From: Parcubacteria group bacterium Gr01-1014_31
GTDB lineage: Bacteria; Patescibacteriota; Patescibacteriia; Buchananbacterales; GWA2-38-13
Assembly: GCA_007376135.1 (NCBI GenBank)
Contig: VMFR01000002.1
Location: 156,870-220,869 of the forward strand
Reading direction: 5' to 3'
Length of the DNA: 64,000 nt
Below, piece by piece: positions 9,701-43,982 of the stretch. Both the position numbers and the translations under genes were made by a program. The notes beneath the pieces are model-generated. The model made no database searches. It saw nothing but the letters and a program-made list of their open reading frames with translations, and had not been told where the DNA came from. The stretch's first letter is position 1. Every line of letters begins with the position of its first letter.

Positions 9701-11190
<1,490 letters not shown>

Positions 11191-21477: not shown

Positions 21478-21593
21478 AACGGAAGTGTAAAGCGTAAAGT
21501 GGAAAATGCAAAATTATGGAGTCCCGCCAGAGGCGGGACAAAAGATCTTTTCCTAAGTTTTTCGTTTTACGTTTTGCATTTTACGTTTTAACC

Positions 21594-22872: not shown

Positions 22873-23292
22873 TTAGCGGTTCGTTCGTAAAACGTAGGGC
22901 GCCGCGTCCCACAGCTCCAGCGTCTGGCCTTCGGCCATGTCCACGCGGTAGACCCGCACGCCGTTGGGTTGCTGGTGGGAGTAGCGTAAGCGGCCGCTGT
23001 TCGTGAGCTGCTGCAGCGACGCGGGGTTCACTACGGTCGCGCGAGATGCCGTCGGCGCGGGACCCTCACGGCTTACCCCAAGGGCAGCGAAAAAACCGAC
23101 CGCCAGCGCGCCGCTGGCCAGCGGCAGCAGTCGGCGCAACGTTCGCAGCCATGCGGTCGCGCGCGGTTGCGTGTAGTAGGGTGAATTCAATAGCGCGCGG
23201 CGCAGTTGCTGGGTGAACGCGGGGTCAGGGCTGTGCGGCGGAACTGTTTGCCGCAGCCGGCGTTCGAGCGATCGCTGGTCGGGAAGTTCCAT
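22873..23292 (-). CDS. Putative membrane-anchored anti-sigma factor
   Basis: Single TM helix (LLPLASGALAVGFFAALGV) immediately downstream of an ECF sigma factor. It overlaps the 3' end of the sigma gene by about 68 bp, so its start is uncertain. Confidence 0.4.
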   Translation of the reverse strand: MELPDQRSLERRLRQTVPPHSPDPAFTQQLRRALLNSPYYTQPRATAWLRTLRRLLPLASGALAVGFFAALGVSREGPAPTASRATVVNPASLQQLTNSGRLRYSHQQPNGVRVYRVDMAEGQTLELWDAAPYVLRTNR

Positions 23293-23818
23293 AGGGGTTG
23301 TCCTCAAGCAGGGTTTTGAGTTTGTGCAAGGCGCGGTGGAGGTGGGATTTAACGGTGTTGACCGGCAGGCTCACGGTGGCGGCGATCTCCCGCAGCGAGA
23401 GGTCTTGAAAATAGCGGAGGGTGATGATGTGCTGCTGGATGAGCGAGAGCTGCCGCAGCGCACCCTGCACGGCGGGGTAGTCGGCGGAGAGCGGCAAGGC
23501 GGGAACTTTCAGGTCGGGCAGCTGTTCGGCCAACTCCAGCGCGACAGAATGTTCATGGCGGTAGTGGCTTCCCAGCTGCGCAATGGCGATACGGTACAGC
23601 CACGCCGAGAACGGTTTGCCCGTCCACCGGTAGCGCCACAATCCTTTGAGCGCCGCCAGGAATGTTTCGGCGGTCAGGTCCTGCGCCAGGGGCACGCTGC
23701 CGGTGCGCGACAGCAGGTAGCGGTAGATACGGTCAACGTAGCGGTCGTACAGGACGCCGAAAGCCTCGGGGTCGCGTTTGGCCTTCGCGACCAGTGTTGC
23801 TTCTTCATTTGGGTGCAT
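23225..23818 (-). CDS. RNA polymerase ECF-type sigma-70 factor
   Basis: Region 2 (YDRYVDRIYRYLL) and region 4 HTH (LSLREIAATVSLPVNTVKSHLHRA). Start at MHPNEE. Confidence 0.8.
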   Translation of the reverse strand: MHPNEEATLVAKAKRDPEAFGVLYDRYVDRIYRYLLSRTGSVPLAQDLTAETFLAALKGLWRYRWTGKPFSAWLYRIAIAQLGSHYRHEHSVALELAEQLPDLKVPALPLSADYPAVQGALRQLSLIQQHIITLRYFQDLSLREIAATVSLPVNTVKSHLHRALHKLKTLLEDNPYGTSRPAIARTPAAANSSAAQP

Positions 23819-24055
23819 GCTCCTATCCATACATAGCAATTGTACGGAGGGGAGTTGCAGCTGGTCAATGCGGCGGTGACGTTGACAGTCTGCGGATTTT
23901 ATGGAATGATGAGTGAACATTTTTCCCGCTTGAAGTTGTTCCGCTGACCCTGCTATAGTGCAGGCGTTCCCGTTTTTCCGGCAGTGGCTGTGGTGGTGTG
24001 TCCTCTTCGAATGACGGGACGATTCCCTCTTTGTTATTTTTTTGCATCCTTTGGT

Positions 24056-24113
24056 GGGCGCGTAGCTCAGTTGGTTATCCCGCCCCACGGCGGGACAGGG
24101 AGCGCGTCACTGA
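24056..24113 (+). pseudogene. 5' portion (tRNA positions 1-35) of an interrupted second tRNA-Ile copy, with a 20-22-nt GC hairpin inserted in the D-loop
   Basis: gggcgcgtagctcagttggtta + [tcccgccccacggcgggacagg] + gagcgcgtcactga. With the insert removed it is identical to positions 1-35 of the intact tRNA-Ile 70 bp downstream. Confidence 0.7.
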
Positions 24114-24182
24114 CCCGCCTGCCGGAGTACGGAGTCTTTAATAATGTAATATCTATTCCCCATTCCATCGTTTGTTGCTGTT

Positions 24183-24259
24183 GGGCGCGTAGCTCAGTTG
24201 GTTAGAGCGCGTCACTGATAATGACGAGGTCCCTGGTTCGACTCCAGGCGCGCCCACCA
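24183..24259 (+). tRNA. tRNA-Ile (anticodon GAT), CCA encoded
   Basis: Cloverleaf gggcgcg/cgcgccc acceptor, anticodon loop cTGATaa, T-loop ttcgact, discriminator A + CCA. Confidence 0.85.
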
Positions 24260-24296
24260 GCAGCACGTGATGGGGTGACTCCGTACGGCGGGCAGG

Positions 24297-24359
24297 TAAT
24301 GACGAGGTCCCTGGTTTTTACCCCGTCGAATGGCGGGGCGACTCCAGGCGCGCCCACCA
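24297..24359 (+). pseudogene. 3' portion (positions 36-76) of the interrupted tRNA-Ile copy, with a 22-nt GC hairpin inserted in the T-loop
   Basis: taatgacgaggtccctggtt + [tttaccccgtcgaatggcgggg] + cgactccaggcgcgcccacca. Identical to the intact gene once the insert is removed. Confidence 0.7.
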
Positions 24360-24401
24360 AAGGATGCAAGTTTTCGAGTTCGTCCTTGTCCTACAATTAT
24401 T

Positions 24402-24476
24402 GCCGAGGTAGCTCAGTGGTAGAGCGCAGGCCTGAAGAGCCTGGCGTCGTCAGTTCGATTCTGACCCTCGGCACCA
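24402..24476 (+). tRNA. tRNA-Phe (anticodon GAA), CCA encoded
   Basis: gccgagg/cctcggc acceptor, anticodon loop cTGAAga, T-loop ttcgatt. Confidence 0.85.
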
Positions 24477-24480
24477 CCAG

Positions 24481-24515
24481 AGTCCGACCCCTTGCCGGGG
24501 TCGGCTTTGTTTTAT
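24481..24515 (+). terminator. Rho-independent terminator after the tRNA pair
   Basis: agtccgaccccttgccggggtcggctttgtttta. Confidence 0.55.
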
Positions 24516-24646
24516 GGGAGTGGTTTTTGTATCGGGTTGACAGTTATGTAAAAATATGGTAGAAATAACAGAATGTTCCTTGACCCTTTTCCATCAACCA
24601 TGCGGCCCGCAACGGCCGTAATCCCTCTGTCTAAAAGGAGGACACC

Positions 24647-25792
24647 ATGCAAGGGATCAGTCTCGCCTACCTGATGGCGTGCGTGCGGGCGTTGTGGGGC
24701 GCCAATTCCAATCTCCTCAATACGGCGGTACGGCGTACCGTGACGACCGTGTCCTACGGTAAGGAAGACACACTGGCGTTGGACGCCATCGCCGAGGAGG
24801 AGATCGCCGAATCGCTCACGCGGTTCGACCACAGCGCGACGCTGGTGACCGAGGAGGCGGGTAAACTCGCGTCCGGCGACGGCAACCACCAGCACGGGGC
24901 GCAATTCTTCAGCGATCCGGTGGATGGCAGCAAGCAGCTGCAACAGTTCCTGATGCGGTCGAAGTTCGACCCGCAGGCGCGCGTGGCCGATCTCATCTAT
25001 GCCTCGTCGGCGGTCGCCGACTGGGAGAAGATGCATGGCGCGCCGGCCAGCGTGACCGGCGCCTGTAGCGCCATTACGATGGTGCGCGACGGTGTACCGG
25101 TCTTTTCGGCCATTCTCAACTTCATCAGCCAGGAGCTGGTTGTGGCGTGCCGCGACGGTATCGTGCGGATCTCGCTGCCGCACATCAAGGACGGCTTGCC
25201 CGAGCCGTTGACTCCCGCGTGGCTGTTTGGCAACGGTACGCCGCTGTCGTTCGACTGGGCGCCAGCCCAGGAGAAGGATTGGAGCCGGCCGTTCGTCACC
25301 TACCTGCCGAACGACGAGACGTATCGCAGTAACTTCCAGGGCTGCCGCATCTTCGGCGATGACGAGAAGCGGGTCGCTTCGCTGGTCGGCAAGTCCACCA
25401 CCGGTCCCGCGCGGCCGCTCTATCTGTCGGATCTGCATCGCCAGCCCCGCGTCAAGTTCGTCGCCGCCAACGGCGAAAAGATCGGGGAGTGGATCCACTG
25501 GCTGCCGTTCATCCGTTTCGCCAAGCGCGGGGACGAGCCGCTGCTGCGGCTGTACGAAGTGGTGCCCGAGCGCCCGGTGGTCAAGGGTGGCATCCTGATG
25601 AGTCCGCCGCCGGAGTATAGTATCTTCCAGCAGGTCGCTCACGGCGTGTTCCTCATCAACTGCCGCCGCCTCCGCGCGTTCCCTAACCCCTCGCTCTTCC
25701 GCTCCACACTCGTACTGCTGCCGTCGGACAACGTCCACATCCGCAGCATCATGAAGTCCAACCGCCACCGGCGCATCCAGCTCCCCTCCTAG
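24647..25792 (+). CDS. Inositol-monophosphatase/FBPase-superfamily-like protein with a long C-terminal extension
   Basis: DPVDGS metal-binding motif and an upstream EE...TEE segment. The C-terminal ~150 aa have no recognizable motif. Confidence 0.5.
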   Translation: MQGISLAYLMACVRALWGANSNLLNTAVRRTVTTVSYGKEDTLALDAIAEEEIAESLTRFDHSATLVTEEAGKLASGDGNHQHGAQFFSDPVDGSKQLQQFLMRSKFDPQARVADLIYASSAVADWEKMHGAPASVTGACSAITMVRDGVPVFSAILNFISQELVVACRDGIVRISLPHIKDGLPEPLTPAWLFGNGTPLSFDWAPAQEKDWSRPFVTYLPNDETYRSNFQGCRIFGDDEKRVASLVGKSTTGPARPLYLSDLHRQPRVKFVAANGEKIGEWIHWLPFIRFAKRGDEPLLRLYEVVPERPVVKGGILMSPPPEYSIFQQVAHGVFLINCRRLRAFPNPSLFRSTLVLLPSDNVHIRSIMKSNRHRRIQLPS

Positions 25793-25913
25793 GCGCGTCC
25801 GGTGTACCCTCGCCCGCTGCTTTTCCCAAGGCAGCGGGTTTTTTTGCTGCCGCCATCCGGCCGGTGGTATACTAAGGAAGGAACCGAAAACTTATACACT
25901 TTATCTATAACGT

Positions 25914-26591
25914 ATGGTGGAGGGGTTTTTCCGTGCGTTCCAGATCACTGCCCAGGCTGTGTGGGCGGACCTGGTTGCCAACTCTCCGCAGATCCTGGGG
26001 GCGTTGGCGGTCTTATTCTTCGGCACGTTGCTGGCGGCGACGCTGGGGTTGATCGCGTCGCGGTTCGTACGCGCGTTGCGCGTGGATCAGCTTGCCAGCC
26101 AGTTCAAGGTGAACGCCGTGATGGGCAAAGCCGGCATCAAGGATTTTTCCGTCAGCCGGCTGGTCGGATGGGTGGTCAAGTGGTTCTTCGTCGTGGTGGT
26201 GTTCCTGACCGCCGCGGATCTGCTGGGTTGGACGCAGCTGACCGAATTTTTGACGAACGTCGCCATGTACTTGCCCAAGGTACTGGTCGCCGTGCTCATC
26301 CTGTTGGCCGGCACGGTGTTGGCGAACTTCATCAGCCAGGTCGTGCGCCAAGGCGTGACGGCATCTAAGCTGGGCAACGCCGGCGTGCTGTCGGCGTTCA
26401 CCAAGTGGCTGATCATCGTGTTCACGGTGATGGCGGCGCTGGTGCAACTGGAGATCGCCAAAGAGCTGACGCAGATCCTGTTCACCGGGCTGGTGGGGAT
26501 GATCTCGCTGGCTGGAGGTCTCGCGTTCGGCCTGGGCGGCAGGGATGCTGCGAAAGATTTTCTGGACAAATTGCGTCGCGATACGCACTAG
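25914..26591 (+). CDS. Hypothetical polytopic membrane protein (conserved TM-helix repeat type)
   Basis: Four or five hydrophobic helices; no catalytic motif. Confidence 0.5.
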   Translation: MVEGFFRAFQITAQAVWADLVANSPQILGALAVLFFGTLLAATLGLIASRFVRALRVDQLASQFKVNAVMGKAGIKDFSVSRLVGWVVKWFFVVVVFLTAADLLGWTQLTEFLTNVAMYLPKVLVAVLILLAGTVLANFISQVVRQGVTASKLGNAGVLSAFTKWLIIVFTVMAALVQLEIAKELTQILFTGLVGMISLAGGLAFGLGGRDAAKDFLDKLRRDTH

Positions 26592-26708
26592 TTCGGACGT
26601 CCCTACTGCGATGAACACCGCGCCCCGCGAATGCGGGGCGCGGTTCGTTGCGGCACGATTGACGTACGCGATTATTGTGCGCTAGGGTGCAGACAGTCAT
26701 GCGACCGG

Positions 26709-26781
26709 CGGGGATTAGCGCAGTTGGTAGCGCGCTTGGTTTGGGACCAAGAGGTCGCGGGTTCGAATCCCGCATCCCCGA
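26709..26781 (+). tRNA. tRNA-Pro (anticodon TGG), CCA not encoded
   Basis: Acceptor cggggat/atccccg, D-stem gcgc, anticodon arm cttgg-tTTGGga-ccaag, T-arm gcggg-ttcgaat-cccgc. Confidence 0.75.
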
Positions 26782-26798
26782 TTTCAAATTTTTCGTTT

Positions 26799-26875
26799 CG
26801 TGGGTTTCCCGCCACCGTAATGTAATTTATTACGAGGGCGGGACCTCCCGCCAACGGCGGGATGGCAAATCCCAC
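26799..26875 (+). repeat. Copy A of a ~80-bp hairpin repeat (gggtttcccgcc / AT-rich core / ggcgggacc / cccgccaacggcggg)
   Basis: Homologous block-for-block to 36296-36360. Shares the cccgccNNNNggcggg hairpin and the taatgtaat core with the tRNA-Ile locus (24078-24160). Confidence 0.65.
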
Positions 26876-26949
26876 CAGCCCGATTTTTTCTCCCGCATGT
26901 CCCGAGTGGTTTTTCACCGAGCTTCTCCGTTGGCTACTGAAGTGTTGCT

Positions 26950-28956
26950 ATGATTGCAGCGCTTTTCTTTTTTTTACTGCAGCTGGGTGCAGGCTGGGCC
27001 TGTCTGCCGCTGTTGGACCCGACGCGGCGCTGGTCGCTGCCGGTGCGGGCGGTCGCCGGTAGCGTCGTCGGGCTGGTAGTTTCCGGGTATGCGGTTTTGT
27101 TGGCCGCCCTGCTGACGCGTTCATTGTCTTTCGGGATCCTCGCCTTCTCCATTTTGGCCGCCGTGGCGGTCATTTGGCGCTGGCGCTGTGATCCTCCGGT
27201 GAAGGAAAAAGTTTTCGGGGCGTTCGCAGGGATCTCGCGCGCGCCGGCCGCATGGGCGGTGGCCGGTATTGCGGGGCTGGTGAGCCTGCTGGGATTGCAG
27301 GTGTTGCTGCCGGATAAGGTGTTCGTGCGGGCGATCTTCGTCGGCTGGGGGGATGCGGCATACCACTTGAGCATCATCCAGCGGTTCGCCGTGGCGCAGC
27401 CGTTCACGCTGGAGCATCCCGTGTTTTCCGGGCACACCCTCACCTACCCGTTCTTGGTGGATTTTTTGTCGGCGTTGTACCGGCGGCTGGGGGCATCGGC
27501 GCTGTTCTCCTACCACCTGCCCGTCGTTGCCCTGGCGGTCGCCGGGGTCGCGTTGCTTTTCTCCTGGTATCGCACGCTGCGGATCCGCCATGGTCTGGCC
27601 GTGGTGCTCCTGGCGGTGGCGTTGTTCGGTGCGGGTCTGGGGTGGCTGTGGTTGGGTCGCGATTTTTCCGCAGCATGGCAAACCGGAGGCACCGTTGGGA
27701 TTTCGGAAACATTGCGTGATCTGCCGCATGAGTACACCCACCTGGACCGGCGTACCAGCGGACTGCGCGCAGGCACGGAGAGCGACGCGAATATCGTGTG
27801 GATGGTGCCGGTCCTGTCATTCCTTACCCATCAGCGCGGGTTTGCCCTGGGCCTGGCTCTCGGGATGGTTGTGCTCTACGCGCTGGCGATGCGCGCGACG
27901 GCACCCTGGGTAGTTGGAGTGCTGGCGGGTTTGCTGCCTCTGGCGCACGGGCACACTTTTTTCGCGCTCGGGCTGGTCGGCGCGGCGTGGTTTTTGGTCG
28001 GCTGGCCGAACCGGCGATTCTGGCTGCGCGCGGCGCTGCCGGCGGCTATCATCGCGCTGCCGGCGCTCTTGTATCTGCGCGCCGGTCTATCCGGCAGCGG
28101 CGGCGGAACCGCGATGCGCTGGTGGTTGGGGTGGATGACCTGTACCCATGAGCGGCATTGGCTGCTGTGCGACCAGCCTGTCCCGGCGGGCGCCGACACT
28201 TCGGTGCTGTGGTTTTGGCTGAAGAATTTCGGCGGAGTTCTGGTCGCTTGGGCGGCCGTGCTGCTTGTTGCCGTTTCGCGTTGGCGGAAACGGGAGCGAA
28301 CAAGTCTATCGGCAGTCCCATTACTGCTGCCCTCCGTGCTGCTGTTCGCGGTTCCCAACCTGGCGAGGCTGCAGCCCTGGGAGTTTGATAATAATAAGGT
28401 GCTGTTCTGGTGGTGGCTGTTTGCCATCGGCGCCATCGGCCAGTACCTCATGCTGCTGCCGCGGCCGTCCTTTCGGCGGTGGACGGCAGTCGCCCTGGCG
28501 GCGGTCGCGCTGCCGGCGGGGGTTACCGACGTTGCGTCGCGCCTGGGGCATTGGTCCACGTATCACTCCGGGTACGTGCAAGCGGCTGACCGCACGGCCG
28601 CCGACTGGATCATAGAACATTCCGTTCCTAATGCGGTCATTGCCGCCGCGCCCAGCGCCCACAGTTTTGTGCCGTTGCTGACGGGCCGGCCGTTGGCGCT
28701 TGGGTATGAAGGCTGGCTCTGGAGCCAGGGGGTCAACCTTGCGCCGCGCGTGGCGGCGATCTCCGCGCTCGCACGCGGAGAGATCGCCCCGGCCTGTCGC
28801 GAAGGTGTGCAGTTCGTCGTCGCGGATGCCGATTTCTTTCAACGGTTCGGGGGCGACAGCGCGGCGCTGGCGGGGGTAACGGAACTGCGCTGGCAGCAGG
28901 AAACGCCGCGCGGACCACGCCGCATCTACGCGCTCCCCTGTACTCCGCAGCCTTGA
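26950..28956 (+). CDS. Large polytopic integral membrane protein (668 aa, function unknown; possibly a glycosyl/arabinosyl-transferase-like membrane enzyme)
   Basis: More than 12 predicted TM helices plus a C-terminal soluble domain. No recognizable motif. Confidence 0.5.
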   Translation: MIAALFFFLLQLGAGWACLPLLDPTRRWSLPVRAVAGSVVGLVVSGYAVLLAALLTRSLSFGILAFSILAAVAVIWRWRCDPPVKEKVFGAFAGISRAPAAWAVAGIAGLVSLLGLQVLLPDKVFVRAIFVGWGDAAYHLSIIQRFAVAQPFTLEHPVFSGHTLTYPFLVDFLSALYRRLGASALFSYHLPVVALAVAGVALLFSWYRTLRIRHGLAVVLLAVALFGAGLGWLWLGRDFSAAWQTGGTVGISETLRDLPHEYTHLDRRTSGLRAGTESDANIVWMVPVLSFLTHQRGFALGLALGMVVLYALAMRATAPWVVGVLAGLLPLAHGHTFFALGLVGAAWFLVGWPNRRFWLRAALPAAIIALPALLYLRAGLSGSGGGTAMRWWLGWMTCTHERHWLLCDQPVPAGADTSVLWFWLKNFGGVLVAWAAVLLVAVSRWRKRERTSLSAVPLLLPSVLLFAVPNLARLQPWEFDNNKVLFWWWLFAIGAIGQYLMLLPRPSFRRWTAVALAAVALPAGVTDVASRLGHWSTYHSGYVQAADRTAADWIIEHSVPNAVIAAAPSAHSFVPLLTGRPLALGYEGWLWSQGVNLAPRVAAISALARGEIAPACREGVQFVVADADFFQRFGGDSAALAGVTELRWQQETPRGPRRIYALPCTPQP

Positions 28957-29025
28957 TATCCGGGGTCGTTCAGGAATGGTATACTAGGGGAAAGGTCGGA
29001 GGGTCTCAATTTTGTCCCTATCTAT

Positions 29026-29235
29026 ATGGAAAATCAACCAATGCACAGCAATTCATGTTCCTGCCCGCACCACAAGGTGGTGCCGTTGGCGGTAGCCTTG
29101 ATCGGGGCGCTGTTCTTCCTGCAGAACATTGGCGTGCTGGGGAGCGGCATCGTGAACGTGTTGTGGCCGCTGGCGCTGCTCGCCGCCGGTCTGACCAAGG
29201 CGTTCGGGAGCAGTTGCAAGTGCTGCGTGAAGTAG
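29026..29235 (+). CDS. Small membrane protein (69 aa) with C-terminal Cys cluster
   Basis: Two TM-like segments; followed by a terminator hairpin (ggccgccccggtggggcgg). Confidence 0.4.
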   Translation: MENQPMHSNSCSCPHHKVVPLAVALIGALFFLQNIGVLGSGIVNVLWPLALLAAGLTKAFGSSCKCCVK

Positions 29236-29334
29236 CTTACAGGGAAGGCCGCCCCGGTGGGGCGGTTTTCTGTTACCTCTTGTTCCGCGGTTCGTTCAAT
29301 GGTAGGGTTAGGGGTGCTCTAACTCTTTATTTCC

Positions 29335-30333
29335 GTGCCTATGCCCGAGACTACCGTGCGCAAGCCCAACGCTTTTGACGCGTTCGTCCACCTGGTGGCG
29401 TACGTCGCCCTGGTGTGGTCGGCCGTCTCCGTGGGCGGCATCATTTTTCAATTCATCAATCGGTTCGTGCCGGCGCTGGAACCAGGCGCGTACGTCTACG
29501 CGACCGACGCGGTCAGCACCGGCGCGTTGCGGTTCCACATTGCCACGCTGCTCTTGACCGGTCCGTTGTTGCTTTCCATGACCGCCTACCTGCACCGCCT
29601 GTTCAAGCAGGGTGCGCTGGTCACCGACAGCGGCGTGCGGCGCTGGCTGACGTACCTGCTCCTGTTCGCCGCGGCGGTCAACATCGTCGGCAGCGTCATC
29701 GCCTTGGTGTACCAATTCCTCGGCGGCAACTACACGGTGAATTTCCTGCTCAAAGCGGCAACCATCCTCGTGATCGCGGGCGGCATTTTCGGCTTCTACT
29801 TTTGGGAGCTGAAGCGGGGTACCTACCAGACCCGCCATCCCGGTGCCCTCCCGCTGGTGGCCGGCTTGGGCGTACTGTTCGTGGGACTGCTGATTGGCGG
29901 GTTTTTGCTCATCGGTTCTCCGCGCTTGGCGCGGATGCGCGAGTACGACCGGATGCGCGTGGACCGCGCGGTGCAGTTGAACTACCAGTTGGGCGATGAA
30001 TACCGTCGCACCGGTGCACTCCCCGCGACACTTTCCAATTTTGACCCGGCGTTCACCGAGGATCCGGAGCATGGCGCGCCGTTCGTCTACCGCAAGGCAG
30101 CCGACGACCGGTATGAGCTCTGTGTGACGTTCGCGGTATCCGCCCCCGAGCCGGTGGTACCGAAGGGCGTGCCGCCGTCGCGCGTACCCAAGCCCTATGG
30201 GGGCAGCGGCGGCGTCGAGCAGGCGTGGTACGAGCACGGCGAGGGCGAAGTCTGTAATACCTTTACGGTCAAGCGCCAAACTGCTGACGACCAATTCATC
30301 GAGACCCAGGTGGAAAAACCAGCTTCTCGCTAG
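29335..30333 (+). CDS. DUF5671-like membrane protein
   Basis: Four N-terminal TM helices then a soluble C-terminal domain, the arrangement typical of DUF5671 proteins. Confidence 0.5.
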   Translation: MPMPETTVRKPNAFDAFVHLVAYVALVWSAVSVGGIIFQFINRFVPALEPGAYVYATDAVSTGALRFHIATLLLTGPLLLSMTAYLHRLFKQGALVTDSGVRRWLTYLLLFAAAVNIVGSVIALVYQFLGGNYTVNFLLKAATILVIAGGIFGFYFWELKRGTYQTRHPGALPLVAGLGVLFVGLLIGGFLLIGSPRLARMREYDRMRVDRAVQLNYQLGDEYRRTGALPATLSNFDPAFTEDPEHGAPFVYRKAADDRYELCVTFAVSAPEPVVPKGVPPSRVPKPYGGSGGVEQAWYEHGEGEVCNTFTVKRQTADDQFIETQVEKPASR

Positions 30334-30712
30334 TTTGAAAGCCCAGCAACGAATATACCCCCGATAGCCTCGGGGGTATATTTATACTCCATCCACTTCT
30401 CCTTTCCACCTTTCGTTCCCGCTCTTTTCTCGCGGCCTGGATATTTCCGGGCCGTTTTTTTGCCCGTTCATATGCCATAGGATATCCACCCTTGATTATT
30501 TGACTGGCGGTTCTATGCTTTGGTTCATCAAATCCACTTCTCGGGGATGTTCAGGATGCCGCAGGGATGTTCTGCCGCACGAGAGTGGCCTTTTCTTTTA
30601 CCTGTGAATTTCGGCTGCGGCGCGCGTGCGTCGCTGGTTGAAAATTTGCAGCACCCGTTCTTTCCGATTCTTTTTTGGACCCCCAGGCTGGTTTCCCAGT
30701 CCGGGGATGACA

Positions 30713-30745
30713 ACGATAAAACCCCGCGGCCGCGGGGTTTTATCG
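30713..30745. terminator. Bidirectional terminator hairpin
   Basis: aaaaccccgcggccgcggggttttatcgttg. Confidence 0.55.
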
Positions 30746-30765
30746 TTGTGCTCGGGACGGGTTTG

Positions 30766-30936
30766 CTACAGGCAGGTGCATTTTGCTTGCGGCTGGTTGC
30801 AGCCCGTGCATTTGGGCTGGCAATGATTGGCGCCGCAACGGTGCGTTGGCTGGGGCTCGGCAAATTCCTCGCCGCACGCATCGCATTTGAAGCCGTCGGC
30901 ACTGCCGTCGCATTTGGCGCAGACGAGGTTGTGCAT
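30766..30936 (-). CDS. Cys-rich small protein (56 aa, 10 Cys, 3 His); metallothionein-like or zinc-ribbon protein
   Basis: MHNLVCAKCDGSADGFKCDACGEEF...HRCGANHCQPKCTGCNQPQAKCTCL. Upstream tataatgagaaaact precedes the ATG. Confidence 0.5.
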   Translation of the reverse strand: MHNLVCAKCDGSADGFKCDACGEEFAEPQPTHRCGANHCQPKCTGCNQPQAKCTCL

Positions 30937-31086
30937 AGTTTTCTCATTATACGGATTTGCCCCCGTCGCGGGCAAGCGCCCCTTGCCGCGGACGGTTTCG
31001 GGGTGTACCATAGGCGCTACCATCCACGTGCGAAGACTCGTGCTTTCTCCCGCCTACTAATTTTATAGGTATCTCCTCGTGCGAGA

Positions 31087-31157
31087 GCGGGTATTGTATA
31101 ATGGCATTACCTCAGCTTTCCAAGCTGATGACGCGGGTTCGATTCCCGCTACCCGCT
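31087..31157 (+). tRNA. tRNA-Gly (anticodon TCC), CCA not encoded
   Basis: Acceptor gcgggta/tacccgc, anticodon arm tcagc-ttTCCaa-gctga, T-arm gcggg-ttcgatt-cccgc. The D-stem has one U-U mismatch, so the parse is moderately confident. Confidence 0.7.
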
Positions 31158-31202
31158 CTCGCACGAGGAAAGGAAGGTAGGCGGGATCCCGCCCGCGGCG
31201 AG

Positions 31203-31313
31203 ACAAGCTGATGACGCGGGTTCGTCCTATACCAGAGCAAAGCACAGTATAGGACGCCCTGTACCGTGTTCCGCAAAGCGGAACTCTGGTACTGGGGCGA
31301 TTCCCGCTACCCG
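31203..31313 (+). pseudogene. Second copy of the tRNA-Gly 3' half (positions 36-72), interrupted by a 75-nt structured insert in the T-loop (between 55 and 56)
   Basis: caagctgatgacgcgggtt + [cgtcctata...ctgggg] + cgattcccgctacccgc. Identical to the intact gene outside the insert; the insert has nested inverted repeats (ccagag...ctctgg, tcctatac...gtatagga, gttccgc...gcggaac). Confidence 0.65.
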
Positions 31314-31414
31314 CCTACATGAATACCGGCGCTGACGCGCCGGTTTTTGGTGAATAAAAAAAGCCCCGGCGGTTGTAGCAACCGCGCGGGGCCAACGGTG
31401 CGGAGCCAACGAGG

Positions 31415-32380
31415 CTACTCGCCTTCGATGCCCGCCATCCGGAAGAGGATGGCGCGAAGTCTAATGATACCGACGGTTTGTCCGCCCTCGGTGACCTCGC
31501 CCACGTGCGGTTCGCGCCGTAGCAGGTGGAACGCTTCGCTGATAACCATATCCAGCGGCACGTCCACCATACCGTGGATGAGCCCGGCTTTGGCCAGGTC
31601 GATGGTGGCGTCGGGAGCGTCGCTTTTTCCCAGATGGTTGATGAGGTCGCGCCGTCGCACGATGCCCAGCACCGTCTTGGGGTCACCCTCCGCGATGACG
31701 ACGATGTGGCTATGGCGGATGGCCGCCTCCACCAACTGCTGGCGGGTTGGCCGCTGGGTGATGGCGGTACATTTGTCCAGCGGTATGTAGAGCTCCCGGA
31801 CCTTGCGGTTGCCGACGCGGATCAGCGTCTGGATGAGTCCGGCCTCCTCCGGGTCCAGGGTCCCGTGCTCTCGGGCCGCTTGGGCGGTGGCGATGACGTC
31901 TTCTTCGCGGTAGATGCGGCGTTCCGTGCCGCCCGTCAGGCGGTTGGTCAGCCGCAGCGCCCACGTGATGGGGAAGCACAGCCACAGCAATAGCCGGATG
32001 GGCACGGCGGACAGCAGCGCCGACCGCATGGCGTACTTGTACCCGATGTTCTTGGAGACGATCTCCCCGAAGAAGAACAGCGCCACTGCGTAGATGGCCA
32101 GGATCGCATTGATGCCGCCGTCCATGTCAATGGAGAGCCGGCCCAGCACCAGCGGCGTGAAGTACGTCAGCAGGTGGATGGCAAACAGGATGAAACCGAC
32201 CACGATCATTCGTTCGTCGTTCAACTGGCGGATGGCTTTGGTCGCGGACGTTCGTCCGCCGGATTTGCCCTCATGGGCGACCACATCGTGGTCGTAGACG
32301 GTCAGCCAGACCACTTCGAGCAGGGAGAACACGAAAATGAGGACGAACGAAATGACCATAACGAGTGTAATGAGCCACAC
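31415..32380 (-). CDS. CNNM/HlyC-CorC-family membrane protein (DUF21 transmembrane domain plus tandem CBS domains)
   Basis: N-terminal 4-TM DUF21-like region, then a CBS pair (IVVIAEGDPKTVLGIVRRRDL, ...). GTG start at 32378-32380 preceded by aaggagg. Confidence 0.75.
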   Translation of the reverse strand: MWLITLVMVISFVLIFVFSLLEVVWLTVYDHDVVAHEGKSGGRTSATKAIRQLNDERMIVVGFILFAIHLLTYFTPLVLGRLSIDMDGGINAILAIYAVALFFFGEIVSKNIGYKYAMRSALLSAVPIRLLLWLCFPITWALRLTNRLTGGTERRIYREEDVIATAQAAREHGTLDPEEAGLIQTLIRVGNRKVRELYIPLDKCTAITQRPTRQQLVEAAIRHSHIVVIAEGDPKTVLGIVRRRDLINHLGKSDAPDATIDLAKAGLIHGMVDVPLDMVISEAFHLLRREPHVGEVTEGGQTVGIIRLRAILFRMAGIEGE

Positions 32381-32577
32381 GGGAAACCTCCTTTGTAGTG
32401 TTCCATCGGGTTGGCGCGAAATTTGCGATTGTTCAAGGACATTCAAGCGCGGTGCTTGAGGGAGGATGCTACCAAAAAAATCATAGAATGTCAATATGAA
32501 CCAGTCGTTCGTCTTGGCGTGAACCTGAAAATTATGGCATAATATACTTATCAACATCACCACGTTTATTTAATTGT

Positions 32578-35295
32578 ATGGAGGGAATGCCCCAGCCGAC
32601 GCCGATGCCGCCCGTTCCGCCACGACCGGTCCAGCGAATACCGACCGCTCCGCCCGTACCGCAGTCCTCACCCGCCCCAAGACGTTCGCATCGGGGTTTG
32701 GTGGTTATCGTGTTGGTGTTGTTGTTTTTGGTCGCGGCGGGCGCCGTGGCTGCGCTCGGGTATTTTGGGGGGTGGTTTGGCCCCAAAAAGACTTCTCAGC
32801 TCTCGGATGACGAGATCCTTTCACGGGCGCTGCAGATGCTGCCAGAGATCAAGTCCGGCTCGGTTCGGTTTGACATCGGGTTCAAGTCCGAACCGCGCGA
32901 TGAGGGGGCAAAACCCATTACCGATGAGATTCCAGGCCTGGAAGAGCGGCGCAAGGCGAGAAATCGTGATGGCGAACGGCTGCAAGATATCCAGCGGTTG
33001 ATGTCCTCGCTGCGCGTTCGTAGCCGAAGTTCGACGAGTCCTTCCGCGAGCACCGGGGTGCAACCCAGCTACCCGCAGACTTTGGATGAGTTCGTGCTTG
33101 ACCCGGAAACGCGTACCGATCCCAGCGGCGGCAGCTATCGCTACAGCAGCAGCGGCAGCGATTTCTCGCTCGCTTTCCGCCTGGAAACTTCATCGGCGGT
33201 GGCCTCCTGGAACAAGCAACTGGATGGTACGCGCACCTACGGCAGTACCACCGCCGCCCCGCCGCGGGCCGTTGTAAATCAGGACATCACCCTGACGGCG
33301 GCGCATGAGACCCCATACGTGTATCTGGGCAGCGACGGTCTGGACCCGCTGGCGATGTTCGATAGCGACAGCCTGGATATGTACCAGTGGCTGCCCAGCG
33401 ATCTGGATACTTCATTCAACATTTGGAGCGATTTCCAGGCGCCGTCGGCCGACGGCAAACCGAGCAACGCATCCGCCGGGCTCGGCGCGAAGGTCGCGAT
33501 GGGCGCGTTCACCTTCGCTGGCAGCGGGGAGGTCCGCAAGGTTGGTGAAGTAATGTACGGCCGCGTCAACGAGTTTCCGGCACTTGGATTTTTCGACCTC
33601 AATGCCATCAAAGGCAAGTGGGTCGCGATGACCGAGGAAGATCTCATCGGCAGCGGCTTGGCCGTCAATTTCGCCGAGGTCAAAGAGGAGGTTTCTAAAG
33701 AGAACGCGACGGCCGTCAAGCAGTACCAGCTGGCGATCGCCTTGGCGCGCGAGCAGGGCGTGCTGAGCATTGAGCAGGTCCTGCCGATGACCGAAGAGAA
33801 CGGCGTTCGCTACCACCACTACCGGTTGAAGTTCGATCGCACGAAGTTCGTCGGTTATTACCAGGCGCTGGCGGAGCGTTCCAAGGCCGAGTTCGGCAAC
33901 GACGCGGTCGTGAAATTCAGCCAGGAGGTCGTGGATTATCTGCAGAACGAGGACTTCGCGCTCGCCTACGATGCTCTGGCGAAGAACACCGCTGCGGAAG
34001 TCTGGGTGCAGGAAAAGACCTATCTGCCGCGACAACTCGCATTCAGCGTCCGTCTGGTGCCGCCGGATGCGGCCATCAAACACGCCGGCAAACAGTTCAA
34101 GCTCAAAACGTCGGTGACGCTGGACAAGGTCAACCAGCCGGTGTCGGTGGAAGCGCCGTCCCCCACCATCAGCGTGGATGAGGCCACGGGGCTAGTTACT
34201 GGGCAGTCGCCGGCGCAGATCGTGCTCCAGCGCCAGATTCGCAACGTGGAGGCCATTCGCACGGCGTTACGGAAGTACCGCCAGCATGCCGGTGCCTATC
34301 CCGAGACGCTTACCGACTTGAAGCGTAAGCCGAGCGAGGTCCCACGCGCGACTCCGACTCCTAAGCCGGCTCGCGGCTCGCTGCAGGAAACCGTGAATAT
34401 TGGACTCCAGTACGGTACGGTCGTGGGGTTTGGCGGAACAGAAGATTGGGAGGAGCCGAGCACCAAGAACGACGCACCCTTCCTCAAGGTTATCCCGAAT
34501 GATGTCTACACCAAGCAGCCGTATCCGTACCAGCGCGATGGCGAGGGATACACGGTCAAATACCAGGTCCAGCTGGTCAAGGATGAAAACTCGGAGCGCA
34601 GTCCGTGGTCGTCGTATGCGCAGTACGTGGAAGGAGAGAATACCGCCGACCAGAGTTCTCTCTCGCGGGAGCAGGAAACGACCGAGGACAGCGATCATGA
34701 CGGTTTGAGCGACCGGCAGGAGCGGGATGTCTATGGCACAAGCCCGTATGATGACGACACCGACAACGACGGCTTCAAGGACGGCGTGGAGGTGCGCGGT
34801 GGCTATAACCCCAAGGGTGACGGTCGGCTGCAGACAGGGCAAACCCAGCCGGAAACCTCGTTGTCGGGAGGTACGACATCGGTGACCATGCGTGACCGCC
34901 AGCGCGTGTCCGACATGAAGCAGCTGCAAACGGCGTTGGAGATCTACTTCAACGACAAAGGCGCCTACCCGCCGGAATCCGGCGACGGTGAGATCGGCAA
35001 CCCGACCAACGGGTTCGGTTGTCTTGGTGATCTTGGTTGGGAGCAGGATAATATGTGTGCGTCACCGATTTACATGGGGTTGACGCCCCATGATCCGAGT
35101 ACCACCGTCGCTAACCCGGGGAATGACAATCCTTGCAAAACGGAAGGTGTGTTGCCGTGCAACTATTCCTACAACCAGTTGTCGGGAAACACTTACGAGA
35201 TTCATTTTCGACTGGAGGCAAACACCGGCGGCCTGAGCAGCGGATTGAACTGCGCTTCCGAGGCAGGCACAAGTAGTAAAGGATGCGTCCATTAG
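32578..35295 (+). CDS. Large signal-anchored surface protein with two internal type-IV-pilin-like head domains and Asp-rich Ca-binding (thrombospondin-type-3-like) repeats
   Basis: Pro-rich N-terminus then a TM helix. Two pilin-like segments (IVLQRQIRNVEAIRTALRKYRQHAGAYP and MRDRQRVSDMKQLQTALEIYFNDKGAYP) and DSDHDGLSDRQERD...DDDTDNDGFKDGVE repeats. Confidence 0.6.
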   Translation: MEGMPQPTPMPPVPPRPVQRIPTAPPVPQSSPAPRRSHRGLVVIVLVLLFLVAAGAVAALGYFGGWFGPKKTSQLSDDEILSRALQMLPEIKSGSVRFDIGFKSEPRDEGAKPITDEIPGLEERRKARNRDGERLQDIQRLMSSLRVRSRSSTSPSASTGVQPSYPQTLDEFVLDPETRTDPSGGSYRYSSSGSDFSLAFRLETSSAVASWNKQLDGTRTYGSTTAAPPRAVVNQDITLTAAHETPYVYLGSDGLDPLAMFDSDSLDMYQWLPSDLDTSFNIWSDFQAPSADGKPSNASAGLGAKVAMGAFTFAGSGEVRKVGEVMYGRVNEFPALGFFDLNAIKGKWVAMTEEDLIGSGLAVNFAEVKEEVSKENATAVKQYQLAIALAREQGVLSIEQVLPMTEENGVRYHHYRLKFDRTKFVGYYQALAERSKAEFGNDAVVKFSQEVVDYLQNEDFALAYDALAKNTAAEVWVQEKTYLPRQLAFSVRLVPPDAAIKHAGKQFKLKTSVTLDKVNQPVSVEAPSPTISVDEATGLVTGQSPAQIVLQRQIRNVEAIRTALRKYRQHAGAYPETLTDLKRKPSEVPRATPTPKPARGSLQETVNIGLQYGTVVGFGGTEDWEEPSTKNDAPFLKVIPNDVYTKQPYPYQRDGEGYTVKYQVQLVKDENSERSPWSSYAQYVEGENTADQSSLSREQETTEDSDHDGLSDRQERDVYGTSPYDDDTDNDGFKDGVEVRGGYNPKGDGRLQTGQTQPETSLSGGTTSVTMRDRQRVSDMKQLQTALEIYFNDKGAYPPESGDGEIGNPTNGFGCLGDLGWEQDNMCASPIYMGLTPHDPSTTVANPGNDNPCKTEGVLPCNYSYNQLSGNTYEIHFRLEANTGGLSSGLNCASEAGTSSKGCVH

Positions 35296-35423
35296 GTTTT
35301 TCAAAAATCGTCCCGGAAACGGGGCGATTTTTTTATTGCGGAATCAGGGGGTAAACTATTGACAATTTAGGTCAATTATGCTAGGATACACACTTCCCCA
35401 ATTAGGGGATTTTTTATTAGACT

Positions 35424-35897
35424 ATGGCCAAAAATTCAGTCTTCCGTCGCTCCTTTGGCGTAGCCGTTCTCGTCTCCACCCTCTCGCTGCTTTTGGCTAC
35501 CTATCCGGGCGTTGCCGCCGCTCCTCAGGGGGTCGACGACTATCCGGACGCCGTACAGCGTCAGGCGGAAATGGCCGCGTCCGCGCCGAAGGTCGTGCGC
35601 ACGATGAAGGTTATGGTGACGGCCTACAACAGTCTGCCCGAGCAGACCGACAGCACGCCGTGCATCACCGCCAGCGGTTACAACCTGTGCAGGGCCAATG
35701 AAGAGAACGTGGTTGCCGCCAATTTCCTGCGGTTCGGCACCAAGGTGCGCCTGCCTGAGTATTCCGGGGAACGGGTCTACACCGTGCAGGACCGCATGCA
35801 CCCGCGGTTTAACCGCCGGATGGACCTGTGGATGCGCGAACGTTCCGCCGCCAGGAAATTCGGTCTGCGGACGCTGACGGTGGAAGTGCTAGAGTAA
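35424..35897 (+). CDS. 3D-domain protein (MltA/YocH/SpsK-like peptidoglycan-binding/lytic domain) with signal peptide
   Basis: MKVMVTAYNSLPEQTDSTPCITASG is the 3D-domain signature; N-terminal signal peptide. Confidence 0.65.
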   Translation: MAKNSVFRRSFGVAVLVSTLSLLLATYPGVAAAPQGVDDYPDAVQRQAEMAASAPKVVRTMKVMVTAYNSLPEQTDSTPCITASGYNLCRANEENVVAANFLRFGTKVRLPEYSGERVYTVQDRMHPRFNRRMDLWMRERSAARKFGLRTLTVEVLE

Positions 35898-36108
35898 TCT
35901 CCATTAGTGCCAGAAAATGCCGCGGTCTTCCGCGGCATTTTTGGTCCCCGTGGCTTGAAAAGCGGTATTTACGGTGGTACGCTGGGGCGTACCAAGTGTT
36001 TGGGCGCGTTTTGCCCCGCAAGGGAAGACCGCCAGTCGAGGAGCTGTCCATTCAACCTTTTACATCATGTCTTTGTCGCGGTGGTGGGCAACATTTTGAC
36101 CCCATTGA

Positions 36109-36136
36109 GGCCAGGTAGCCAAGTGGTAAGGCAACG
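36109..36136 (+). pseudogene. Isolated copy of tRNA-Cys positions 1-29 (5' fragment)
   Basis: ggccaggtagccaagtggtaaggcaacg is identical to the first 28 nt of the intact tRNA-Cys 54 bp downstream. Confidence 0.65.
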
Positions 36137-36189
36137 CGGCGTCACGCGTTAAAAATTTCTTTTCGTAGAGTCGCTTTTGGCGGCAGGGA

Positions 36190-36261
36190 GGCCAGGTAGC
36201 CAAGTGGTAAGGCAACGGTCTGCAAAACCGTTATTCACGGGTTCGATTCCCGTCCTGGCCT
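36190..36261 (+). tRNA. tRNA-Cys (anticodon GCA), CCA not encoded
   Basis: Acceptor ggccagg/cctggcc, anticodon arm acggt-cTGCAaa-accgt, T-arm acggg-ttcgatt-cccgt. Confidence 0.8.
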
Positions 36262-36295
36262 CCTTGCCGCCAACTTCGTTGTTGCGTATTGATGG

Positions 36296-36360
36296 ACGGG
36301 TTTCCCGCCTCCGAAATATTTTTTTAAGAAAGGAAGGCGGGACCCCGCCAACGGCGGTGG
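36296..36360 (+). repeat. Copy B of the ~80-bp hairpin repeat (gggtttcccgcc / AT core / ggcgggacc / ccgccaacggcgg)
   Basis: Block-for-block homology with 26799-26875. Abuts the tRNA-Cys 3' fragment. Confidence 0.65.
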
Positions 36361-36379
36361 CGATTCCCGTCCTGGCCTC
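36361..36379 (+). pseudogene. Isolated copy of the tRNA-Cys 3' end (T-loop position 56 to acceptor end)
   Basis: cgattcccgtcctggcctc is identical to the 3' 19 nt of the intact tRNA-Cys and starts exactly at T-loop position 56. Confidence 0.65.
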
Positions 36380-36507
36380 GGTGCGGTCAATCGCGGTCGC
36401 GGTTCGTGTAGGGGTTGGTCGGTCCTCAGTCTTGGAGGGCCGATTTTTATGTCAGGCTTGCGAAAAATGCCGTTTTCTGATATTCTCAAGCAGTCTTTAC
36501 GACCCCT

Positions 36508-43965: not shown

Positions 43966-43982
43966 TTGGTATGGCGAAAAAT

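Follow-up and report, generated by a model that had tools for sequence, protein, structure and literature searches.

The stretch analysed here, 64,000 nucleotides (nt) of contig VMFR01000002.1 from Parcubacteria group bacterium Gr01-1014_31 and hereafter called the window, carries a bacterial 16S rRNA gene, seven tRNA genes and housekeeping genes in a host genome of 62% GC. At its tRNA-Ile, tRNA-Gly and tRNA-Cys loci an intact gene lies inside an interrupted copy of the gene for the same tRNA, an arrangement that we call a nest, and diverged tRNA 3' fragments trail both tRNA-Pro and tRNA-Lys. Our subject is these disabled outer copies, or shells, and a short palindromic repeat found in their loops, the double-hairpin element (DHE). 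The window was compared with its close relatives (L086, 86-87% DNA identity; L083, IF-2 73%; the strain L085, 96% DNA identity), with GTDB species representatives, the nearest of which, Buchananbacteria and Falkowbacteria among them, have an IF-2 about 53% identical to that of the window, and with metagenome contigs. An assembly artefact was rejected, since nests recur across independent assemblies and strains: the Cys nest is identical base for base in an independent Logan assembly, and the Gly nest and the Pro-locus element are also present in related strains. The 98%-identical contig of L085 stops short of the Ile locus, for which this comparison was impossible.

Double-hairpin elements and disrupted tRNA genes in the window

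At its two full copies in the window the repeat proper is a DHE of 58-59 nt. A first hairpin, H1 (TCCCGCC, about 25 AT-rich nt, GGCGGGA), is followed after 1-3 nt by a second, H2 (CCCGCC-AAC-GGCGG plus 2-4 nt), the two hairpins thus forming both ends of the element. Its 7-bp inverted ends TCCCGCC and GGCGGGA are terminal inverted repeats, and it looks similar in either orientation. The consensus reads TCCCGCCAC, about 22 AT-rich nt, GAAGGCGGGA, T, CCCGCCAACGGCGG and TGA, and the size ranges from about 54 to 59 nt, with mini forms of about 33 nt. Copy A (26807-26865, + strand, 59 nt) and copy B (36303-36360, +, 58 nt) both lie between positions 55 and 56 of a tRNA T-loop. They are homologous, with 48 of 66 aligned columns identical and none of 2000 shuffles scoring as high, as a preliminary description of this DNA had proposed. 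The length of about 80 bp given there has to be reduced to about 58 nt, the end blocks 'gggttt' and '(c/g)attccc' being halves of a tRNA T-arm: 'gggtt' is the T-stem 5' strand with T54-T55, and 'c(g/a)a(t/a)tccc' comprises the remaining T-loop bases, from C56 onward, and the T-stem 3' strand.

A covariance model (R1), built from 34 metagenome copies and three from the window and L085, scores copy A at 60.4 bits and copy B at 59.9 bits (E about 1e-13), matches that are partly so by construction. It has four matches in the window: copies A and B, a composite at the tRNA-Gly locus and a mini-DHE, TCCCGC-c-GCGGGA-TCCCGCCGACGGCGG-TGA (60631-60661, -; 38.8 bits), which is intergenic after a T2SSE gene and has no link to a tRNA. 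As single-stranded DNA the element folds into two hairpins (z -5.7 for copy A and -3.0 for copy B). A plain tally of GC-rich hairpins was discarded as uninformative, such hairpins being ubiquitous in a genome of 62% GC. The pattern CCCGCC-N3-33-GGCGGG occurs 9 times in the window against 1.3 expected, which rules out chance. Solo CCCGCC-N3-6-GGCGGG hairpins also stand away from tRNA genes (21521-21539, 11317-11332, 15283-15304, 17154-17169 and 47189-47207), some of them followed by T-runs in the manner of terminators; the variant with an AGA loop at 21521 is also present in L003, L036 and many DHE contigs.

At the tRNA-Gly locus a DHE carries a whole tRNA gene within its H1. The decayed 5' half of the outer gene, with a weak promoter-like stretch, occupies 30983-31047 (+) and ends gctttc at position 35. 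Inserted at 35/36 is a loaded DHE (31048-31203, +) with H1 arms at 31048-31054 and 31180-31186 and a decayed H2 at 31187-31203, and inside it lies the intact gene for tRNA-Gly(TCC) (31087-31158, +) on a perfect leader-trailer stem of 13 bp (31074-31086 with 31157-31169, +). The outer gene then resumes with piece E3 (nt 36-56; 31204-31224, +), identical to the inner gene in the window, is interrupted again in its T-loop by a 73-nt double-hairpin insert of a different family (31225-31297, +; z -5.8), and ends with the 3' part of the T-loop, the T-stem and the acceptor 3' strand (31298-31314, +). When the stem-tRNA-stem unit is removed, the remainder of the Gly insert aligns end to end with empty DHEs (42 of 58-61 positions identical; none of 2000 shuffles match), since it retains the H1 arms, an AT-rich 5' core, a purine-rich 3' core 'aaggaagg' and the decayed H2.

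The orthologous nest of L086 has an intact H2, an inner tRNA gene identical to that of the window and a compensatory g-c to a-t change in the leader-trailer stem. Its outer piece E3 differs at 5 of 21 positions and its outer 5' half is barely alignable with that of the window, from which it follows that the outer copy is decaying; the tRNA-Gly of L083 is not nested. The 73-nt T-loop insert is 72/73 identical in L086, marginal as a sign of extra conservation since local identity is already 90-95%. The suggestion that the AT-rich core can hold a tRNA is thus borne out, here and in nests of tRNA-Phe (L135) and tRNA-Thr (L126) elsewhere.

The tRNA-Ile locus is more elaborate. Four exact and ordered pieces of tRNA-Ile (nt 1-22, 23-36, 37-56 and 57-77), together identical to the inner gene at 77 of 77 positions, surround the intact, working gene for tRNA-Ile(GAT) at 24183-24259, all on the + strand. 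Piece E1 (24056-24077) is followed at position 22/23 by I1, a D-loop hairpin TCCCGCC-CCAC-GGCGGGA-CAGG (24078-24099). Piece E2 (24100-24113; nt 23-36 in ARAGORN numbering, that is, to anticodon position 35) is followed at 35/36 by I2, the nest-forming insert of 183 nt that encloses the intact tRNA-Ile (24114-24296), and piece E3 (24297-24316) by I3, a T-loop hairpin ccccgtcgaatggcgggg at 55/56 (24317-24338), before the 3' piece E4, which includes the CCA (24339-24359). The arms of I2, CCCGCCTGCC at 24114-24123 and GGCGGGCAGG at 24287-24296, are related to the H1 arms of the DHE. I2 further contains an AT-rich stretch that includes taatgtaat, and its leader and trailer form a long imperfect stem. 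A perfect 21-bp stem, whose 5' arm at 24042-24062 (+) pairs with 24349-24369, lengthens the outer acceptor stem by 14 bp, and the fold of the entire region is very stable (z -10). In L126 the arms of I2 recur in inverted form around a tRNA-Thr nest at 35/36. L148 has, at the position of I1, a D-loop insert ending GGCGGGGCAGG, and the hairpin family of I3 recurs in L083 (17367-17384) and in a T-loop in L100.

The preliminary description had rendered the hairpin, the arms and the core of this locus correctly but incompletely, leaving out the four tRNA-Ile pieces; the Gly nest, the 5' half of the outer tRNA-Cys (36109-36136) and the mini copy had also escaped it. Consensus promoters were found at the Ile locus only upstream of the outer gene, where TTGAAG-18-TATAGT (23930-23959, +) is likely to be the promoter of the whole Ile-Phe nest operon; a second promoter-like site lies at 23882-23910 and a terminator follows tRNA-Phe. 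Also upstream of the outer gene, 24002-24026 is 80% similar to the I3 hairpin with the 3' part of the T-loop (24321-24345), and might be what is left of an even earlier shell. Divergent from the operon is a gene of the sigma-70 family with regions 2 and 4 (23225-24088, -), whose listed start overlaps the outer tRNA-Ile and is probably placed too far upstream.

At the tRNA-Cys locus the inner gene, for tRNA-Cys(GCA) (36190-36263, +), occupies the variable-loop region of its outer counterpart and stands on a leader-trailer stem of 13 bp (36177-36189 with 36261-36273, +). The 5' part of the outer copy (36109-36149, +) is identical to the inner gene over nt 1-28 (36109-36136) and continues with an anticodon arm, acgcg-gcgtca-cgcgt, that shows compensatory changes at two pairs and whose loop, of 6 nt, contains no anticodon. 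Downstream of the inner gene come the outer T-stem 5' strand with T54-T55 (36296-36302, +), copy B, and the 3' end from C56 to the discriminator (36361-36378, +); nt 49-73, like nt 1-28, are unchanged from the inner gene. An identical tRNA-Cys in L083 is followed by an orthologous 3' fragment with an uninterrupted T-loop, the empty site for copy B.

Copy A occupies the corresponding place in the dead and diverged fragment that follows the intact gene for tRNA-Pro(TGG) (26709-26781, +), between the T-stem 5' strand with T54-T55 (26800-26806, +) and the remainder of the fragment (26866-26883, +), which consists of the T-loop from C56, the T-stem 3' strand, the acceptor strand cagcccg and the discriminator. 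L085 has copy A as well, with a strongly altered core. The shell downstream of tRNA-Lys (43980-44185, -) is fold-back-like, and runs from a terminator through an antisense T-arm fragment and GC-rich hairpins to a sense 3' fragment, itself diverged, after which the terminator occurs a second time. The sense fragment bears a hairpin in its T-loop and, in place of its anticodon arm, a stem with a GGAA tetraloop; the whole layout recurs in two other genomes (L083, 17240-17560; L169, 2262-2510).

The tRNA sequences that carry a DHE are dead shells, and we saw no DHE in a working tRNA gene. That the outer tRNAs are dead is indicated by the lack of an anticodon in the outer Cys, by the decay of the 5' half and of E3 in the outer Gly, and by Rfam, which over the whole window, at E values up to 10, recovered no partial tRNA at the shells and no group I intron or ribozyme. 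ARAGORN likewise recovered no tRNA after excision of each DHE, the shells having several defects. Run with introns allowed, it gave joins between neighbouring tRNAs, which we rejected as artefacts, except for partial overlaps with known nests, and it assigned the nest of L046 wrongly to tRNA-Ile.

The element and the nests in other genomes

A scan of JGI metagenomes with the pattern GGCGGGA-N1-3-CCCGCCAACGGCGG gave 80 matches on 79 contigs. The 5' arm TCCCGCC, for which we had not searched, lay within 60 nt in 61 of the 80, as against a chance rate that we estimate at about 7%; the further copies that a real family should have are therefore there. After removal of duplicates and high-GC contigs 50-52 unique low-GC copies were left, nearly all on contigs of 35-57% GC and many from groundwater samples. 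Over 1.4 Mb from 84 other loci, comprising the GTDB species representatives and the close relatives of the window, model R1 found matches only in those relatives and in L047, and the GyrA encoded on one DHE contig is 65% identical to that of the window. The family thus belongs to the lineage of the window and is restricted, over the sequences compared, to this one lineage of Patescibacteria, ultra-small bacteria of groundwater in which it is common.

At least 8 of the roughly 52 unique copies are embedded in tRNA-like sequence; every one of these occupies a loop position, without duplication of a base. Since tRNA genes account, by our estimate, for well under 1% of genomes of this kind, the element is strongly enriched in tRNAs. 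The association with tRNA genes claimed at the outset holds to this extent, and the seamless sites in T-, D- and anticodon loops confirm that members of the family occupy tRNA loops; most copies, though, are intergenic, in the loops of other hairpins or in frame in protein genes, and the family is not specific to tRNAs. DHEs were found in the T-loop at 55/56 (Cys and Pro in the window, tRNA-Ile in L122 and L135, and, antisense, L118), at 56/57 (L141, L099 and L147) and, antisense, at 60/61 (L126). D-loop inserts are those of I1, of L100, which has a DHE at the site of I1, and of L037, and anticodon-loop inserts lie at 35/36 (Ile and Gly in the window, L147, where the insert is a DHE, and L126) or 34/35 (L046). 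Insertion was seamless in 7 T-loop cases and at the D- and anticodon-loop sites, and when the inserts are removed from Ile, Cys and Pro of the window and from L122, L141 and L147 the tRNA loops heal exactly, without a duplicated base.

The left flank of the element has the motif R-T-T-Y-N, with T at -3 in 38 and at -2 in 34 of 50 copies, and tRNA loops supply it immediately before the insertion point, as GGTTA in the D-loop, YTNN in the anticodon loop and GGTT(C) in the T-loop. Copies also lie in the loops of larger hairpins (L087, L103 and L139), and in L148 (8660-8780) one DHE stands within the AT-rich core of another, the pair being located in the T-loop of an outer tRNA-Pro (56/57). Five copies lie deep in reading frames of 260-507 codons. 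These copies are free of stop codons, and their removal, by a multiple of 3 (54, 36 or 63 nt), keeps the frame. Housekeeping proteins with in-frame copies are encoded at L116, L107, L117, L095 and L145. One copy (L116) divides the Pfam TIM domain of triosephosphate isomerase, and others are in UvrC and MreC. The added peptides read GGIPPTAG in the sense direction and PPLAGSRL...RWRE in the antisense direction. On the Ga0172379 contigs L101, L119, L131, L133 and L152 the DHEs stand amid arrays of ATTCG / CTCGAAT motifs, spaced by about 10-11 nt and sometimes forming inverted repeats around a DHE; these motifs might serve as binding sites or belong to a larger element.

Shells are widespread in the lineage: on contigs that bear a DHE, 23 of the 39 intact tRNAs are accompanied, within 450 nt, by fragments of their own sequence. 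L148 (59% GC) has the gene order Ile-Phe-Pro-Gly of the window; its tRNA-Ile, tRNA-Phe and tRNA-Pro are nested, and its tRNA-Gly is followed by a 3' fragment. Its inner genes sit at positions other than those of the window, which argues that nesting has happened repeatedly. In L135 and L122 the tRNA-Phe nest is bracketed by TCCCGCC-tac and GGCGGGA, and in the low-GC relative L135 the Ile and Phe nests stand directly 3' of the end of the 16S rRNA gene (1150-1900); the 16S rRNA gene of the window itself (9695-11188) has no 23S gene after it within the window. Clean nests are those of a tRNA(CAT) in L046 (1374-1560, -; split at 34/35), which is a tRNA-Met, and of tRNA-Thr(TGT) in L126 (about 1040-1240, -; split at 35/36), where an insert of about 110 nt holds a diverged allele of the same tRNA and the outer exons rejoin as perfect cloverleaves. 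In the nearest relatives of L046 (TsaD at most 70% identical) an uninterrupted tRNA, or a tRNA with a 3' fragment, stands upstream of tsaD, a state that would fit a young dead shell and an intron alike.

Compensatory stem differences between inner and outer copies were found at Cys, Pro and Lys in the window, in L046 Met and in L126 Thr, and the cargo tRNA always equals the tRNA that it disrupts, across nine different tRNAs. The same phenomenon of nests and shells occurs with other hairpin families in L046 tRNA-Met(CAT), L037 and L033, and in the Buchananbacteria locus L003, which has a Lys nest and tandem disrupted Cys units. One such second family, the perfect palindrome CCTGCCTGCCGGCAGGCAGG, occupies the D-arm, between AG and CT, of fragments of tRNA-Lys, tRNA-Arg and tRNA-Leu in two Patescibacteria genomes (L003, 19384-19425 and 19262-19281; L033, about 3281-3299). 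Long spurious open reading frames (ORFs) cross the nests (window 36177-36587 and 24221-24562; L046 287-1636), and several database TsaD proteins are over-long by 30-60 residues at the N-terminus, probably for the same reason.

Mobilising enzyme and comparison with known systems

Pfam searches of the approximately 40 ORFs of the window, with a regular-expression search for Y1 motifs, found no transposase, integrase, reverse transcriptase or HNH homing endonuclease, so that no linked HUH transposase, RAYT or integrase, for which the preliminary description suggested a check, is encoded there; nor does the window contain a gene for a splicing endonuclease. No full-length insertion sequence with DHE-like ends was found in the sequence examined. 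The only ORF found to be even distantly like Y1/RAYT proteins lies in L152 (137-886), 1.5 kb from a DHE and not flanked by DHEs; it scores under the cut-offs (Pfam Y1_Tnp, 22.6 bits for a cut-off of 23; NCBIfam REP_Tyr_transpos, 19.7 for a cut-off of 80) and has no homologue in the other 1.9 Mb of sequence compared.

Among known systems the DHE resembles in its features the Rickettsia palindromic elements (RPEs), which are likewise short palindromic selfish DNA present in many copies, with no linked transposase, in frame in protein genes as well as in RNA genes and intergenic DNA; the DHE has its in-frame protein copies and its copies in tRNA shells. It differs in its unrelated host phylum, its smaller size (33-59 nt) and double-hairpin form, its strong preference for tRNA-type loops and the whole tRNA gene that some copies carry. 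With the REP/REPIN-RAYT system and the PATEs it shares GC-rich hairpins repeated through the genome (four DHEs in the window and the 50-52 unique ones in low-GC metagenome contigs), two hairpins per mobile unit, which as in PATEs derived from IS200/IS605 stand at both ends (here H1 and H2), and, at its tRNA sites, seamless insertion beside a short motif, as single-strand peel and paste predicts; many copies outside tRNAs have a 5-nt direct repeat at their flanks. REP sequences have a GTAG or CGTC tag (cf. PMC3733652), whereas the DHE has none, its ends being TCCCGCC and GGCGG-TGA and its flank R-T-T-Y-N. No RAYT or TnpA gene lies in the window or is flanked by copies, and many DHEs are intragenic. 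We know of no REPIN or PATE that carries a whole tRNA gene.

Like a miniature inverted-repeat transposable element of the DDE type, the DHE has terminal inverted repeats, but the exactly healed tRNA loops show no target-site duplication of fixed length. The GC clusters, double-hairpin elements and repetitive hairpin-forming elements of yeast, Allomyces and sponge mitochondria, whose mobility is inferred from presence and absence and which have no known enzyme (PMC4478555, PMC2800124), are also small and GC-rich in AT-rich genomes and lie between and within genes, RNA genes included. They are, however, organellar, and have neither whole-tRNA nesting nor a reported specificity for tRNA loops.

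As regards the interrupted tRNAs, the multi-intron, split and permuted tRNA genes of archaea (Thermoproteales, Caldiarchaeum), in which homologous inserts at different tRNAs have led to the notion of 'intron transposition' (PMC3293823, PMC4090602), bear as many as three inserts each, likewise in the D-, anticodon and T-loops. Those are bulge-helix-bulge introns cut by a splicing endonuclease, and the genes are functional, whereas here, in a bacterium, the interrupted copies decay (Cys without an anticodon, Gly in decay) and an intact copy is always present, inside the nest or beside the shell. The bulge-helix-bulge geometry (3-nt bulge, 4-bp helix, 3-nt bulge) was not seen by inspection and folding, no dedicated scanner having been run; the inserts of the window are plain hairpins abutting the 5' exon. 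The nearest conceptual precedent is the archaeal mobile element that leaves a tRNA 5' fragment next to the replaced gene (PMC3293823).

Group I introns are known at 35/36 in tRNAs of the same phylum, with U as the last base of the 5' exon (PMC13011429), and 35/36 is the site of the inserts in Ile and Gly of the window, in L126 Thr and in L147 Ser. Against identity with them, there is no match to RF00028 even at E values up to 10, a length of 83-106 nt (tRNA excluded) is too small for such an intron, the last base of the 5' exon is A, C or G (A35 in Ile, C35 in Gly) instead of U, and the insert encloses a tRNA gene. Genomic islands that use tRNA genes as integration sites also restore the essential tRNA that they disrupt and leave a displaced fragment. 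They span several kb, carry an integrase gene, restore no more than the 3' part and generate a direct repeat, whereas the unit of a nest is 110-180 nt, brings the entire gene and no integrase, and leaves two complementary halves. The signs of an integrase attachment site are accordingly lacking: the halves at Ile and Gly are complementary, the window encodes no integrase and the intervals are 50-180 nt.

Origin of the nests

Any account of these loci has to accommodate an element family with defined boundaries, its seamless insertion with a preference for loops and a flanking motif, its in-frame copies, the decay of the outer halves and the copies that carry a tRNA. The DHE behaves as a selfish palindromic element that acts at the DNA level and not as an intron, given its in-frame retention in proteins, the decay of the tRNAs that carry it and the constant presence of an intact isoacceptor. 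We lean, without great confidence, towards the reading in which this mobile element and the nests belong together, the nests being replacements of tRNA genes. The DHE would be non-autonomous and would insert into DNA without target duplication, favouring the single-stranded loop positions of hairpin-forming DNA just 3' of R-T-T-Y-N. Insertion into a working tRNA gene would be lethal, so that copies would survive in disabled tRNAs, the loops of other hairpins, the cores of other DHEs, untranslated regions and tolerant parts of proteins. The disabled tRNAs would be provided by repeated replacement of the tRNA genes of this lineage: a unit made of a complete tRNA on a leader-trailer stem of 12-21 bp, often between the arms of a hairpin element, would enter one of the loops of the gene already in place for that tRNA. 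Transcribed from the old promoter, the inner gene would be released by normal tRNA processing, and the split outer halves would become a decaying shell that gathers further hairpins.

We infer that transposition takes place at the DNA level through single-stranded hairpin intermediates with an enzyme supplied in trans, and by analogy a peel-and-paste mechanism of the Y1/HUH type would fit best, given that insertion is seamless, abuts a short motif and is directed to single-stranded loops. The nests would be the outcome of replacement rather than splicing, and some inner genes would be of horizontal origin, the compensatory changes between inner and outer stems (L046, L126, and Cys, Pro and Lys in the window) indicating that a foreign or long-separated allele was inserted. 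Case by case, the sequences point to two origins of the inner unit, import of a diverged allele and local copying, the latter in the flanks of L148 tRNA-Phe and in the fully identical Ile pieces of the window.

Several observations sit uneasily with this reading. No transposase was found in the window or adjoining any copy, and the mechanism rests on analogy. The constant match between cargo and disrupted tRNA is awkward for a free-moving cargo, unless strong selection acts as a filter, and nests without hairpin-element arms exist (Cys in the window, L046 and L147). Copies outside tRNAs are often bordered by direct repeats of 5 nt (ATTCG or ATTTC), a possible target duplication that would contradict seamless insertion. 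The Ile 35/36 site, with CTGA before the insertion point, departs from R-T-T-Y-N, and the conservation of the H1 3' arm and H2 is partly a matter of ascertainment, both having been fixed in the search pattern.

In a rival explanation the nests arise by duplication in situ, without any cargo element, and the hairpin repeats are unrelated REP-like colonists of dead DNA. The inverted repeats of leader and trailer would form cruciforms or hairpins, replication would stall or break there, and repair by template switching would place a copy of promoter, leader, tRNA and trailer in the loop of that gene where the break occurred. The L148 tRNA-Phe nest fits this better than import, as its inner upstream flank repeats at least 46 nt from upstream of the outer gene and its inner downstream flank 12 nt from downstream, and so does the 77/77 identity of the Ile copies. 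The inner and outer flanks of Cys in the window are position-anchored homologues (10/15 and 8/12 identical), the Cys locus of L003 has tandem 206-bp duplications of the disrupted unit, leader-trailer stems are found only on nested tRNAs, and cargo that invariably equals its target would be a matter of course. In contrast, the alleles of L046, L126 and of Pro, Lys and Cys in the window differ by several compensatory changes with the arms perfect in both copies, and a dead outer copy could not have tracked a live inner one in this way. The inserts of Gly (window and L086), Ile, L135 Phe and L126 Thr are bounded exactly by arms foreign to the outer flanks, and Smith-Waterman comparisons of the outer flanks of Ile and Cys in the window with those of the inner genes were not significant. 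We regard duplication in situ as possible but doubtful.

The inserts might also be true RNA introns, the outer tRNAs being functional through excision and ligation, for instance by cuts at the hairpin base and a ligase of the RtcB type, so that a single transcript would yield two tRNAs. Their seamless placement at loop positions is indeed that of multi-intron archaeal tRNAs, 35/36 is also favoured by group I introns in Patescibacteria (PMC13011429), the Ile nest folds as a whole with the stability given above, and the outer exons of Ile in the window, L046 Met and L126 Thr rebuild perfect tRNAs. Yet the shell always encloses or adjoins an intact gene for its own isoacceptor, the outer Cys has no anticodon, the outer Gly has a decayed 5' half, and Pro and Lys are mere fragments. 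In-frame and stop-free DHEs would be needless in protein genes if the element were excised from RNA. The junctions, as described above, show neither bulge-helix-bulge geometry nor the final U of a group I 5' exon (A in Ile, C in Gly), the window has no group I or ribozyme match, and the L046 nest is missing from its nearest relatives, whose gene is uninterrupted. As a general explanation we find this improbable. A narrower version, confined to the clean nests (Ile in the window, L046 Met and L126 Thr), supposes that their outer tRNA still works and that the insert is a bacterial tRNA intron, freed by RNase P and RNase Z, or by RNase III at the stem, with religation of the outer halves. The fully intact outer exons of L046 and L126 are what a spliced intron would likewise leave and tell against replacement, but we give this version too only a slender chance; if true, one transcription unit would yield two tRNAs by a splicing route not known in bacteria.

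Finally, the fragments could be scars left by the integrase-mediated integration and loss of larger elements, as duplications of the attL/attR type with the hairpins as leftovers. Such events classically leave an intact tRNA with a 3' fragment after it, a pattern seen at Pro and Lys in the window, at Cys, Arg and Lys in L083, and in L169, and the archaeal tRNA 5' fragment mentioned above (PMC3293823) is a precedent. The anticodon loop and the T-loop are known crossover sublocations of tRNA-targeting integrases. This explanation nevertheless leaves the D-loop inserts and the occurrence of the same hairpin element in protein genes and in other hairpins unaccounted for, and it has to contend with the want of an integrase in the window, with intervals of just 50-180 nt and with Ile and Gly halves that are exactly complementary without a repeated core at their junctions. 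We consider it very improbable.

To our knowledge, nested tRNA genes and tRNA-carrying copies of a repeat have not been described, and full-text literature searches returned no description of nested tRNA genes or of the DHE in Patescibacteria. The invasion of tRNAs at D-, anticodon- and T-loop sites takes place where archaeal tRNAs bear non-canonical introns, and mobile hairpins that can be traced from site to site offer a testable model for the origin of disrupted tRNA genes. For annotation, the nests are pitfalls that mislead programs for finding tRNAs, introns and ORFs. Of the tRNA loci sampled in this lineage of Patescibacteria, over half bear shells, and the cargo copies suggest that a protein-less repeat can carry and replace an essential gene, a form of gene replacement by a selfish cassette.

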